NCBI GenBank assembly: GCA_009695005.1
Contig: SIBU01000004.1
Coordinates: 1-50,130, forward strand
Direction: 5' to 3'
DNA from: Candidatus Tayloriibacteriota bacterium
GTDB taxonomy: Bacteria; Patescibacteriota; Minisyncoccia; Phycocordibacterales; SIBU01
DNA: 50,130 nucleotides
Part shown: in pieces, positions 1 through 3,244 of the stretch
Numbering within the stretch: position 1 is the stretch's first letter
Layout of the letters: the number at the start of each line of letters is the position of its first letter
Translations under genes and position numbers: made by a program
The notes under the pieces: model-generated
Databases searched by the model: none
The model's input: the letters and a program-made list of their open reading frames with translations, nothing else
Told to the model about the DNA's origin: nothing

Positions 1-297
1 TTTGGACTAGTGCAAAATACGGGTTATTTTTTTGCCAACAGATTTTTCTACCCCGGTGATGCCTTTTACAATCCCGGTAAACCTATTGAAATTCTCGCTT
101 TACCAGTTGCTGGTCCGTGGATGAAAATTTCCGAGGCGATTGATTATGCTAAAGAGGTAAAACCAAAGGTTTGTTTCCCCGTTCACGATGGTGGTTTGAA
201 AGGACCAGGTATTGCACATAGAGCACCAAAAACAATTTTGCCTCCCGCAGGTATCGAATTTATCGAGATGGTAGAGGGTTCAACTCAGGAATTTTAA
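1..297 (+). CDS. MBL-fold metallo-hydrolase (UlaG/DUF-like), 5' end truncated by the window edge
   Basis: Frame is open from base 1 (FGLVQNTGY...). FFYPGDA, ALPVAGPW and PVHDG match the C-terminal half of beta-lactamase-fold proteins. Confidence 0.7.
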   Translation, partial: FGLVQNTGYFFANRFFYPGDAFYNPGKPIEILALPVAGPWMKISEAIDYAKEVKPKVCFPVHDGGLKGPGIAHRAPKTILPPAGIEFIEMVEGSTQEF

Positions 298-384
298 TTT
301 TCATAAAAGTTTCATTTCGTTATCTCAGGAACTTTGCTTGAGTAAAATTATTAAAAACAATTGGTCATTTTCAGCTACCAGCTA

Positions 385-404
385 CTCTTTACTTAAGTAA
401 AGTT
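385..404. promoter_or_regulatory. Putative operator 1 (CTCTTTA-CTTAAG-TAAAGTT) of the TrpR/HisR-like regulator
   Basis: Palindromic core CTTTAC-N4-GTAAAG at 387-402, just upstream of the -35 box; two more copies at 438 and 831. Confidence 0.75.
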
Positions 405-411
405 ATCAACA

Positions 412-439
412 TTGACATTTTTCTGCCATTTGTTACACT
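412..439 (+). promoter_or_regulatory. Sigma70 promoter of the TrpR-like gene
   Basis: TTGACA at 412-417, 16-bp spacer, extended -10 TGtTACACT at 431-439. Confidence 0.7.
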
Positions 440-455
440 TTACCCAAGTAAAGAA
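436..455. promoter_or_regulatory. Putative operator 2 (CACTTTA-CCCAAG-TAAAGAA) overlapping -10/+1
   Basis: Core CTTTACCCAAGTAAAG at 438-453 overlaps the -10 box and predicted transcription start. Confidence 0.75.
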
Positions 456-468
456 TGGCAGATTGAAT

Positions 469-780
469 ATGTCAAAAAAACAACGAAAAACAAAGGAGAA
501 ATGGACGATCACCGATAACAATGCTTCGGCGTTAGTTCGGGCGTTTCTCTCTATGAAGAGCAGTGCCGAGATGAAGGCCTTTATGCGCGATTTACTTACA
601 GAGTCTGAAATCATTGAGTTTTCCAAGCGTTTTTACACAGCTCAAGCAATTGCAGAAAATACTCACTATGTCGGTATCGAGAGAGTAACCGGATTGAGTT
701 CCCGTACTATTGCTCGAATAAAGAAATGGTATTGGAACGGTACAGGAGGTTACAAGCTCGCGATTAAACGACGAAAATAG
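469..780 (+). CDS. TrpR-like (YerC/YecD, HisR-like) transcriptional regulator
   Basis: FMRDLLTESEIIEFSKRF...Y..IERVTGLSSRTIARIKKW...GTGGY is the YerC/YecD signature. Start placed at ATG 469, downstream of the promoter. Confidence 0.9.
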   Translation: MSKKQRKTKEKWTITDNNASALVRAFLSMKSSAEMKAFMRDLLTESEIIEFSKRFYTAQAIAENTHYVGIERVTGLSSRTIARIKKWYWNGTGGYKLAIKRRK

Positions 781-824
781 AGTATCCTAAAATCGAAGAG
801 TGTCAGTACCATATTTTTTTACCT

Positions 825-852
825 GCTACTCTTTACCCAAGTAAAGAGTAGC
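825..852. promoter_or_regulatory. Putative operator 3, perfect 28-bp palindrome GCTACTCTTTAC-CCAA-GTAAAGAGTAGC
   Basis: 12-bp arms are exact reverse complements; same core as sites 1 and 2; upstream of the leader and the racemase-like operon. Confidence 0.8.
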
Positions 853-895
853 GGATATCACACCTGTTTATAAAACAATAAATGAAATTTGAATT

Positions 896-967
896 ATGAA
901 AAAAATATTAAAAATAAATAGTAAATCTCATCACAATATTCCCTCTGCCGAGAAAGGGTTGTATTGA
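896..967 (+). CDS. Putative attenuator leader peptide MKKILKINSKSHHNIPSAEKGLY (23 aa)
   Basis: ATG 896 to TGA 967, tandem His codons CAT CAC at 929-934, ends 16 nt before a strong terminator. Too short for the ORF track. Confidence 0.5.
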   Translation: MKKILKINSKSHHNIPSAEKGLY

Positions 968-983
968 ATGTTTTTTTCAATTT

Positions 984-1015
984 AACCCCTTCCCGGTAGC
1001 CGGGAAGGGGTTTTT
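984..1015 (+). terminator. Intrinsic terminator (attenuator-type) upstream of the racemase-like gene
   Basis: Perfect 13-bp stem AACCCCTTCCCGG/CCGGGAAGGGGTT with a TAG loop, followed by a T run. Confidence 0.85.
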
Positions 1016-1122
1016 GTTTGTCCACCTTTGAAGTGACAAATGTGTTCTTTTTGGTGTAAGAAAAACCTTTAGCGACTTGCGCCAAAGATAAAAAGGTCGA
1101 ATCAACAAGAAAATATCAAATT

Positions 1123-1890
1123 ATGCAAAATAGTAAAAAATACTTGGTAACAGCAGCTGGCGGTAACGGTACGATAGTCGAACTCTTGAAAGAGGGTTTG
1201 AGCCGTGCAGAATACGCCAAGCAAGGAAAAATTCTAGGCAGGGATTTTGAACCACAAGAGGCGGAACAAGCAGGCTTTCTTATCCCTATAGAAAACCGGT
1301 TTGAGATGGCCGGTGGGGAGTTTTGTGGTAATGCCGCGCGGTCAACTGCCGTCTTACTCTCTATAATTAAAGGATTGACCGAGGTGGAGTTCACTGTGTC
1401 AGGATTTATCGGCACAGTTAAAGCCACTGTGATAAAAATAGGTGGCTCACGATACACCGCGAGGTGTACGTTTGGTGGTTTGCCGGTTATTAGAAAAGAC
1501 GTTTGTCTTAAAAGTGGCCAGGAGGTGTCGGTAGTCGATCTCGGAGGAATCGTACATGTTGTGTTTGAGGCTCCCTTTCCTGTTGATAAAACTTTTTATC
1601 AGAATGCGCACCTTGCTATGATGCGTGAACTTGAACTAGAAAACCGTGAAGCGGTCGGTGTAGTTTGGTTTAAACGCCAGGACAGGTCTGTATTCCTATA
1701 CCCAGTGGTTTGGGTGAAGGAGGTTGACACCTTTTTCTTCGAGCAATCTTGTGGTTCAGGAACAATCGCTGTTGCTCTTGTAACAGGGGCTAAATCAGTT
1801 GTTCAGCCCACTGGAAAAACAATCGAGGTTGAAATCATGAAAAATGGAGTTGTGTTGGAAAGTGAGATGGAGGTTACATATGAAAGTTAA
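1123..1890 (+). CDS. DapF-fold racemase/epimerase, closest in motif pattern to CntK-type histidine racemases
   Basis: AAGGNGT, EQAGF, FEMAGGEFCGNAAR, LYPVVWVKEVDTFFFEQSCGSGT and VVQPTG; both catalytic Cys present (CGN, SCGSG). Confidence 0.8.
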   Translation: MQNSKKYLVTAAGGNGTIVELLKEGLSRAEYAKQGKILGRDFEPQEAEQAGFLIPIENRFEMAGGEFCGNAARSTAVLLSIIKGLTEVEFTVSGFIGTVKATVIKIGGSRYTARCTFGGLPVIRKDVCLKSGQEVSVVDLGGIVHVVFEAPFPVDKTFYQNAHLAMMRELELENREAVGVVWFKRQDRSVFLYPVVWVKEVDTFFFEQSCGSGTIAVALVTGAKSVVQPTGKTIEVEIMKNGVVLESEMEVTYES

Positions 1891-2482
1891 AAAAGTTTGT
1901 GCCGATCTTCCAAGTCTTCGTTCAGGGTTTGTGTCTGTTTACAAAGAAGCTTTTGGTGGTCCGCCATACTATGAAAAGTATGAGGACACCGAGGTTGTAA
2001 ACGACATATGGTTGCCCCACGTAAAAAAAGGACTTGTGGTGCTGGCTTCTGAGGGTGAAAAAACGATAGGGTTTTCTTGCTCTATGCCTTTTTCGGAATC
2101 TCCGGTAGATGTACAAACGTACCTGCTGGGGAAAAAGGAAAATAACTCACTTTCACTTGATGTGCGAGCGATCTGGTACAACTCTGAGCTTGGTGTTGAA
2201 ACACCATATCGAAAAAAAGGCGTAGGGTATGCGCTTATGAGAGTTCGTTTGGCGGAGATCGTGGCGTCGGGCGGGGAATATTATGTAGCTCGTACGGCGT
2301 CAGTAGGTTCAAACTCTCTTCATCTCTATGAGAGGATCGGATCGGTGAAATTGCCAGGCAGTCATAATGTTTCCATTTCCGACCAAGTGATCGTGAATAA
2401 ATCACAGAGCACTGAACGAATCTATCTCTACGGTAGCTGTAAAGAAGCTATAAGAGAAATTGATGTCATCCTAACGGAATAA
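1880..2482 (+). CDS. GNAT family N-acetyltransferase
   Basis: Acetyl-CoA loop YRKKGVGYAL and C-terminal SLHLYERIG. ATG 1880 follows GGAGG and overlaps the upstream gene end. Confidence 0.8.
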   Translation: MKVKKVCADLPSLRSGFVSVYKEAFGGPPYYEKYEDTEVVNDIWLPHVKKGLVVLASEGEKTIGFSCSMPFSESPVDVQTYLLGKKENNSLSLDVRAIWYNSELGVETPYRKKGVGYALMRVRLAEIVASGGEYYVARTASVGSNSLHLYERIGSVKLPGSHNVSISDQVIVNKSQSTERIYLYGSCKEAIREIDVILTE

Positions 2483-2510
2483 TTTTTCGTCAAGACAGAG
2501 TAGATAATTG

Positions 2511-2538
2511 GGACCGTCTTAATTGGCGGTCCTTTTTT
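2511..2538 (+). terminator. Intrinsic terminator between convergent operons
   Basis: Stem GGACCGTC/GGCGGTCC (one G-U) followed by TTTTTT. Confidence 0.65.
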
Positions 2539-3244
2539 ATATTTTAAAATCTAGATGGGAATAGAGGGAACATTTTTTGTCGTAAAAGCATGCCCATTCT
2601 TTATCCCCGTACGAAAAGTGCCACCACTCTCCGTAAAATGGAGCAAATCCTTCTTTCGTGAGGGCGTCATGGAGTATAAGTCGGTTTTTTGTTTGAATCG
2701 AAGAAACCCCTTTGTCAAAAGTTTTTATTTTTTCGGGTTCTGTAAAGTCGGCAATGCGTGTTCCCATATCTAAAGCCTCTCGTTTTTTATCGACGATTGT
2801 AATATCTACAGCACCGCCCGTAGGATGGCCAGCAACGGAAGGTACAGCGCAAAAGTTGTGTGTGAGCGAGTCAAGTTCTTGAGATGAAAAGTGAGGATGA
2901 AGTTCTGAAAGTTTTGTCCGCTGGGCATCGAAATATTTTTTTTGAATTTCCGGGTACCGATATCCGTATACTACTCGAAGACAAAGTCCCATTTGTTTAA
3001 GCTCGTTGTTTGCGGCTGCAAGCTTCCTTGCAACGGCATCTCGGACAAAAATTTTATCGCCTGTATACGGTAACATGTCCTTTTTTTCGTATTCGGCAAT
3101 AATCGTATCGTCATATGTATTGACAAGAGTCATCGATTCTCCATTTTCCGATGATGGCGTTTCTCGTAGCTCCTCGTAAGTGATTATTCTTTCTTTTTTT
3201 GAATTCATGTCTATGGTTAGCTTGATTTTATCATGATCATTCAT
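2537..3244 (-). CDS. D-Ala-D-Ala dipeptidase (VanX/DdpX, peptidase M15 family)
   Basis: YGYR, HPTGGAVDIT, MGT and EWWHFSYGD zinc-peptidase motifs. Start overlaps the permease stop (ATGAATGA). Confidence 0.85.
   Translation of the reverse strand: MNDHDKIKLTIDMNSKKERIITYEELRETPSSENGESMTLVNTYDDTIIAEYEKKDMLPYTGDKIFVRDAVARKLAAANNELKQMGLCLRVVYGYRYPEIQKKYFDAQRTKLSELHPHFSSQELDSLTHNFCAVPSVAGHPTGGAVDITIVDKKREALDMGTRIADFTEPEKIKTFDKGVSSIQTKNRLILHDALTKEGFAPFYGEWWHFSYGDKEWACFYDKKCSLYSHLDFKI

Follow-up and report, generated by a model that had tools for sequence, protein, structure and literature searches.

What does a histidine-type repressor control in a cell that does not make histidine? HisR, that is, YerC of Bacillus subtilis and its orthologues, is a histidine repressor of the TrpR family, known from Firmicutes, Actinobacteria and Synergistetes (Ashniev et al. 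2022, PMC9413887). The question is raised by a stretch of 50,130 nucleotides from Candidatus Tayloriibacteriota (contig SIBU01000004.1; hereafter the window), an ultra-small, uncultured member of the Candidate Phyla Radiation (CPR), in which an earlier inspection of the letters alone (hereafter the sequence-only reading) had found three palindromes around a gene for a YerC-like regulator. Hardly any regulator-operator pair has been described for the CPR, whose members are not growable alone, and the locus provides a testable pair, made up of a 103-residue protein and two short DNA fragments. The words Patescibacteria and Parcubacteria are absent from the HisR study (PMC9413887), and our literature search for HisR in CPR or Patescibacteria found no paper.

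A pattern search places the core CTTTAC-N4-GTAAAG at positions 387-402 (CTTTACTTAAGTAAAG; box 1), 438-453 (CTTTACCCAAGTAAAG; box 2) and 831-846 (CTTTACCCAAGTAAAG; box 3), exactly where the sequence-only reading had located it. With their flanks, the boxes read ctCTTTAc-ttaa-gTAAAGtt, caCTTTAc-ccaa-gTAAAGaa and ctCTTTAc-ccaa-gTAAAGag, respectively. All three fit the common HisR consensus cacTTTA-N6-TAAAgtg (cacTTTAnnnnnnTAAAgtg), a 20-bp palindromic operator (PMC9413887), and the published motif also agrees with the one given for the family in the sequence-only reading. They carry the TTTA-N6-TAAA core, not the TrpR operator TGTACTnGTnnACnAGTACA. Box 3 is part of a 28-bp inverted repeat (825-852) whose 12-bp arms, GCTACTCTTTAC and GTAAAGAGTAGC, surround a 4-base centre, CCAA. 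The centre is not symmetric, so that the earlier description of the whole as a perfect palindrome was slightly overstated.

The boxes are specific to this locus. With up to one mismatch allowed they are the sole matches in the 50-kb window (0.16 expected), and they are the sole exact matches in the 794-kb, 24-contig genome (approximately 0.08 expected from base composition). The looser form CTTTA-N6-TAAAG occurs in 4-18 copies in yerC-bearing genomes of the genus, with seven copies in this one, where the strict form is limited to the three local sites. The matrix scan that had been proposed as a check was run with a weight matrix trained on the relatives' sites alone, the window's own boxes being left out. 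Boxes 1, 2 and 3 scored 27.1, 28.8 and 29.4 bits, for a training median of 28, and the search of the genome for further regulon members returned none, the next matches, at 16.2 and 12.4 bits, being located within coding sequences. Of note, 55 bp ahead of box 1, positions 329-350 show a degenerate resemblance to the boxes (GAACTTTGCTTGAGTAAAATTA, 8.5 bits) and may represent a fourth one that has decayed.

The gene at 469-780 on the forward strand, hereafter hisR, codes for a 103-residue protein that exceeds the cut-offs of both relevant families, with 39.3 bits for Trp_repressor (PF01371; curated cut-off 27) and 48.3 bits for YerC/YecD (NCBIfam TIGR02531; cut-off 42.2). Among solved structures it is closest to 3FRW, 3G1C and 3KOR, all of the HisR type, which it matches over the full length with E values from 3e-9 to 8e-7; Ashniev et al. 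2022 (PMC9413887) took 3G1C as their structure of HisR. The assignment to TrpR/YerC regulators can therefore be retained. This genome (G000) also encodes a distant TrpR-like protein outside the window (contig C20, 21651-21872; 161-aa open frame, 32% identity over 74 residues). We considered this second paralogue as the protein binding the boxes and rejected it, as it occurs also in genomes devoid of boxes.

A consensus scan called one strong promoter in the region, with its -35 hexamer TTGACA at 412-417 and its extended -10 element TGtTACACT at 431-439 (10/12 matches, 16-nt spacer), upstream of the hisR ATG at 469. Box 1 is separated from the -35 hexamer by 9 nt, and box 2 takes in the final two bases of TACACT (434-439) as well as the site where transcription probably starts. 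The two boxes had been described as flanking the -35 and -10 of the regulator; this is accurate for box 1, whereas box 2 overlaps the -10 rather than merely flanking it. The spacing of the two boxes is 51 bp here and 50-52 bp in relatives. Alignment of 20 related loci revealed an invariant succession of a first box, N9-10, TTGAC(A/T), a spacer of variable length, TTTG-n-TAC(A/T)CT and a second box: the box 1 position is occupied in all 20 promoters, the -35 is found at the same place in 20/20, and the conserved extended -10, TGnTAC(A/T)CT, runs into box 2. The autorepression layout seen in the sequence-only reading is thus a conserved promoter-operator module, and autoregulation is predicted for nearly half of the genomes studied for HisR (PMC9413887). 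Given that the -35 of the hisR promoter is enclosed by boxes 1 and 2, and that its -10 and start site are covered, we propose that hisR represses itself. A HisR dimer, probably loaded with L-histidine, would bind the two boxes, which are separated by approximately five helical turns.

The association of boxes with yerC extends well beyond this genome. Among 100 relatives, 15 have a protein match (E <= 0.001), seven of which are close orthologues, and in the orthologues of the same genus the gene is preceded by two boxes, 51-52 bp apart, and closely followed by one more. A wider search yielded 507 relatives, and almost all of their records bear the name of a CPR or Patescibacteria lineage in the title. 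The motif expected upstream of orthologous yerC genes is indeed present: TTTA-N6-TAAA was found at most 220 bp upstream of yerC in 71 of the best 80 loci of this set, and in at least two copies in 36 of these 80, with a box density near yerC 35 times that of the remaining sequence in the same loci. Sixteen genomes without yerC, two of them from the same genus, have the box pattern at control level only (0-3 copies).

One might instead take the palindromes for structural repeats, such as REP-like elements, terminator hairpins or cruciforms, which the YerC protein does not bind. Box 3 and many copies in sister genomes do lie inside long perfect palindromes, often between gene ends, and their outer arms vary while remaining complementary, with one compensated change in the outer arm of the box 3 palindrome of a close relative (L047). 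However, boxes 1 and 2 have arms of just 6 bp and stand at fixed distances from the -35 and -10, no T-run is present 3' of position 852, and the boxes have no other copies in the genome. The control-level counts in yerC-less genomes also argue against structural repeats, as does the core of the boxes, which is identical to the motif bound by a family member that has been tested (PMC9413887).

The recognition helix of the protein adds to this argument, since one of its residues tracks a base of the boxes. CPR half-sites (246 in total) follow the profile y-A-CTTTA-c/g/t. Where the helix reads SS-R-TIAR, the base after CTTTA is C in 100/106 half-sites, and where it reads SS-T-T, that base is mixed (G, T or C). 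Helix residue and box base are concordant in 69 of 73 loci; the tree, built on 85 residues of a short protein, is too weakly supported to give power to a phylogeny-corrected test, and the association finds no confirmation on its well-supported branches. Taken together, we regard unbound structural repeats as highly improbable, and operators of the hisR product as the reading to pursue.

In sister genomes (G006, G003, G001 and G009; L027-L046), additional boxes outside the hisR locus form the centres of long perfect palindromes with arms of up to 23 bp, the outer parts of which vary and yet stay complementary. They are found in short gaps at gene ends, beside genes unrelated to one another (purD, msrA/msrB, NUDIX and pyrF-like). 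Unlike these sisters, the present genome has no palindromic boxes outside the locus. Relatives also often have another box where the cargo operon ends on its 3' side, in a gap between convergent genes in which a promoter is not expected (L022:5929, L021:695, L047:6660, L063:7446, L067:6326, L069:6146 and L070:6294). The window has no box at the corresponding place.

To see what the regulator is associated with across its clade, we classified the same-strand gene immediately downstream of yerC in 67 loci. The most frequent family is HisG (15 loci), followed by SLOG cluster4 (8), HisD (5), HisRS (4), PRA-CH (HisI; 4) and AstE/AspA (3), other families making up the remainder. In 28 of the 67 loci, yerC is thus directly followed by hisG, hisD, hisI or hisS, which links the clade to histidine. 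In the closest syntenic sisters the locus has the same neighbours as in the window, an MBL-fold gene on the upstream side and the MacB/FtsX operon on the downstream side, and behind their boxes these sisters carry hisG-hisC-hisD, hisD-hisB-hisI, hisG-hisI or SLOG-hisG. In three of the sister loci (L051, L059 and L067), the his genes are driven by the two-box promoter module itself.

The present genome differs from this picture. Family searches found no HisG (PF01634), HisA/F (PF00977) or HisD (PF00815) in it, nor in most relatives, and there are no boxes outside the locus that could precede genes for histidine biosynthesis or uptake. In the sister genome G001, which has its own hisG, no box is found near that gene. 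The sequence-only reading had taken the host lineage to be usually without histidine biosynthesis; this is borne out for the genome at hand, but the clade as a whole remains tied to classical his genes. From these links we consider this genome as a derived state, in which the control region has been kept and the cargo exchanged.

Other cargos occupy the same slot in relatives, a position that we propose to be controlled by histidine. They include SLOG cluster4 (TIGR00725) together with a 250-330-aa protein showing faint PRTase signals, a pair of proteins of 244 and 282 residues without family matches, and a 300-aa protein with an AstE/AspA enzyme (L019:4405-6014, L023, L026, L053:5554-7181 and L024:4049-5915). 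Pfam and NCBIfam searches with the relatives' cargo proteins of no known function gave no usable matches.

What, then, lies behind box 3 in the window? The box is found 50 bp downstream of the hisR stop codon. The 28-bp repeat is identical in G001, and the 32 bases around the box show one difference, in an outer flank, while the proteins are 75% identical. Homology between the two loci runs to approximately position 910, beyond which the cargo has been replaced. The consensus scan called no promoter at box 3. The sequence TGcTACTCT at 824-832 is nevertheless a possible extended -10 of an internal promoter.

The third site had been said to precede the downstream operon. It does so, with the refinement that a leader with His codons and a terminator are found in between. 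A short open reading frame of 23 codons (MKKILKINSKSHHNIPSAEKGLY; 896-967, forward strand) harbours two adjacent His codons, CAT CAC, at 929-934. It is followed, before the downstream genes, by an intrinsic terminator (984-1019, forward strand), identified by terminator scan and folding, with a 13-bp stem containing 9 G-C pairs (984-1012) and then a U tract. This arrangement is that of a leader attenuator. A candidate antiterminator strand at 949-962 could pair with 983-996 (constrained fold of -17.4 kcal/mol); the duplex, at -12.2 versus -7.0 +/- 2.8 for shuffled sequences, was reached by 20/500 shuffles and is thus marginal. An Rfam search of positions 1-3000 gave nothing significant, the weak matches to PyrR, L10 and rnk leaders being due to the terminator only.

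Comparison with relatives reinforces the description of 896-967 as a leader. The order box 3, His leader, terminator is shared by the four closest relatives with a single box 3 (L047, L053, L145 and L147), in front of three different cargos. Their leader frames contain HHH and lie within approximately 50 nt of the box; they have three His codons and, where the frame could be delimited, are 24-29 codons long (e.g. MKIKNIIINIVHHHADETQESVCV). We had envisaged the 896-967 frame as the decayed start of a SLOG gene such as that of G001, and dropped this reading in view of the intact His leaders after box 3 in close relatives and of the His-run tails found clade-wide.

These tails are C-terminal extensions of the repressor itself, present in 46 of 94 CPR HisR frames (3' ends of hisR in L024, L025 and L071-L136). 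They range from HH to HHHH or read HTHTH, with the first His 5-20, and mostly 9-16, codons before the stop. A terminator is found downstream of hisR in 34 of the 46 loci with a His tail, at a distance of 16-50 nt, versus 6 of the 48 without. The end of the leader in the window (HHNIPSAEKGLY) and its terminator resemble such fused tails, e.g. NHHNPAPKGRGLS in L086, and the 984-1019 terminator is closely similar to those that follow His-tailed hisR genes, including that of L086. In His-tailed loci the end of the repressor gene itself seems to act as an attenuation leader, a role that in the window would fall to a separate frame.

Beyond the terminator, the first gene of the operon (1123-1890, forward strand) codes for a candidate racemase of the CntK-like DapF fold. 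It belongs to CntK_N (PF26317) according to the precomputed Pfam assignment, and matches the NCBIfam histidine racemase models with 66 and 48 bits, for cut-offs of 400 and 300 bits, respectively. It overlaps a gene for a GNAT acetyltransferase (1844-2482, forward strand; PF00583, 23.4 bits), the real start of which is probably an ATG near 1880. A convergent gene (2537-3244, reverse strand) encodes an M15, VanX-like peptidase (PF01427, 64 bits), and shares 8 nt with the end of the FtsX gene, including its stop. The expectation that the targets would differ from the classical his operon is thus in line with the genes found downstream of box 3.

The racemase was found in just 2 of 401 phylum-wide genomes, and metagenome contigs were sampled instead, yielding 69 loci. 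The GNAT gene accompanies the racemase in L139, L141, L144 and 40 of the 69 metagenome loci, and the M15 gene is found beside it in L139-L144 and in 50 of the 69, which suggests that the M15 gene belongs to the racemase module and travels with it. Racemase, GNAT and convergent M15 genes make up a conserved three-gene CPR module (1123-3244 in the window; L139-L144 and L150-L228). In L141 and L144, this module adjoins genes for HisRS, SLOG cluster4 and AstE/AspA, with an aromatic-lyase gene in L141 as well. A hisR gene is located directly upstream of the module in at least five other loci (L139, L166, L187, L192 and L195). Four of these (L166, L187, L192 and L195) have boxes at the hisR promoter, and a His-run tail is present on HisR in L139, L166 and L187. 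In the metagenome set, hisR is found nearby in only 7-9 of the 69 racemase-module loci.

Does box 3 still serve the operon, or is it a leftover in a locus where hisR regulates only itself and the racemase operon has an unregulated promoter behind the terminator? The his genes have been lost, another cargo has taken the place of that found in G001 (homology stops near 910), and a strong terminator stands between box 3 and the operon. In addition, L139 has no box between hisR and the racemase gene, but a terminator and a TTGACA-like element. A relic would nonetheless hardly be expected to keep the 28-bp repeat identical to that of G001 while the proteins have diverged to 75% identity, or to score as high as boxes 1 and 2 with the matrix. 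Box 3, His leader and terminator have also been kept together in four close relatives with three cargos, and no consensus promoter was found in the approximately 100 nt between terminator and racemase gene (1013-1122). We therefore consider a leftover box 3 as rather unlikely, and favour box 3 as an operator of the downstream slot.

The nature of the signal must also be weighed. The boxes could be true operators of this protein and yet respond to a signal other than L-histidine, such as D-histidine, histidinol, a phosphoribosyl nucleotide or a non-histidine compound. [quoted passage not shown] Alignment with 3FRW and 3G1C shows that E33, D41 and E47 are kept in the hisR product, that the three other positions are replaced (by A, R40 and Y), and that helix 2 has two additional acidic residues, E45 and E50. 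With three of the six acidic positions changed, one of them to Arg, the ligand could differ from that of Firmicutes HisR. A frequent cargo of the genus, SLOG cluster4 (TIGR00725) with a PRTase-like protein, is suggestive of nucleotide chemistry, and this genome has no his genes for feedback. Set against this are the hisG, hisD, hisI or hisS genes that adjoin in 28 of the 67 clade loci, the His-codon leaders or tails with terminators in the same loci, which would read His-tRNA, and the behaviour of the tested family member: DNA binding by HisR of R. gnavus in vitro requires L-histidine (PMC9413887). A different signal thus appears improbable to us, and L-histidine is retained as the probable ligand.

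Taking these elements together, we find it quite likely that the HisR-type repressor encoded at 469-780 uses the three palindromes as its operators, by the mechanism that follows. The boxes probably control the repressor's own gene and the candidate histidine-racemase operon. Besides repression of hisR at boxes 1 and 2, box 3 would act as the operator of the downstream slot, where it would either control a weak internal promoter or, as a roadblock, stop transcription that had started at the hisR promoter. Transcripts passing box 3 would meet the 23-codon leader, with its two His codons, and the strong terminator. In a shortage of His-tRNA, the ribosome would stall in the leader; with the ribosome held at the His codons, the 949-962 strand would be free to pair with 983-996, and transcription would read through into the racemase-GNAT operon. 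Box 3 would thus limit entry into the leader, while leader and terminator would admit transcription only when His-tRNA is scarce. By combining HisR repression with His-leader attenuation, we propose, the cell would read its histidine twice, as tryptophan is read in the trp operon of Escherichia coli.

A broader and clearly more tentative proposal, which we put forward as a serious possibility, is that hisR, box 3 and His leader constitute a conserved slot gated twice by histidine, into which exchangeable cassettes for histidine supply are inserted, with His-tail leaders in half of the clade. Such cassettes would include his genes, SLOG with PRTase-like pairs, AstE/AspA sets and hisS. In the window, the slot holds the CntK-like racemase, the GNAT enzyme and the M15 dipeptidase, with which a cell devoid of his genes would salvage D-histidine and D-peptides. 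If so, histidine shortage would be answered by salvage of D-histidine or histidine-containing D-peptides from a host or the surroundings. A histidine sensor in a cell that does not make histidine appears to gate a candidate histidine racemase, an acetyltransferase and a D-peptidase, and these enzymes may be part of how CPR symbionts obtain histidine. A fixed control region, made up of operator and His leader, with exchangeable cargo, also offers a route to a histidine-related role for several enzyme families without assigned function.

How does this system compare with known ones? The regulator and the type of operator are already known from other phyla. Compared with the literature searched, three features are new: the occurrence in CPR, a control region that was kept when the his pathway was lost, and its combination with a His leader and a non-biosynthetic cargo. 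The system resembles HisR (PMC9413887) in protein family, in the TTTA-N6-TAAA core of a 20-bp palindrome with c/g flanks, in the autoregulatory sites before hisR and in the association of the clade with his genes. It differs by its CPR host without his pathway, its racemase-GNAT cargo, the two boxes 51 bp apart that bracket the promoter, the joining of an operator to a His-codon leader, and the change of half of the acidic helix-2 positions.

As for the cargo, we compared it with the histidine racemases CntK of Staphylococcus aureus and HisR of Fusobacterium nucleatum (PMC11602996). All fall into one fold group, DapF-like with two Cys (PF26317 and NCBIfam matches), but the scores of the cargo gene are far below the equivalog cut-offs and there are no staphylopine genes here; histidine is a candidate substrate. 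That the F. nucleatum racemase and the repressor share the name HisR is a coincidence.

The trp operon of E. coli has the same general logic: a TrpR-fold repressor acts on the promoter, a leader peptide with codons for the amino acid concerned and then a terminator come next, as deduced here from sequence, and the repressor gene is autoregulated, as predicted here. Here, however, the amino acid would be histidine rather than tryptophan, the operator differs from that of TrpR, the repressor is encoded in the locus itself, ahead of the leader, and the cargo is not biosynthetic.

The enterobacterial hisL attenuator likewise has a short open reading frame with adjacent His codons before a gating terminator. 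The hisL leader has seven His codons and that of the window has two, a DNA-binding repressor being added in the latter. In many CPR relatives, by contrast with hisL, the repressor itself carries the His run, as a tail at its C-terminus.
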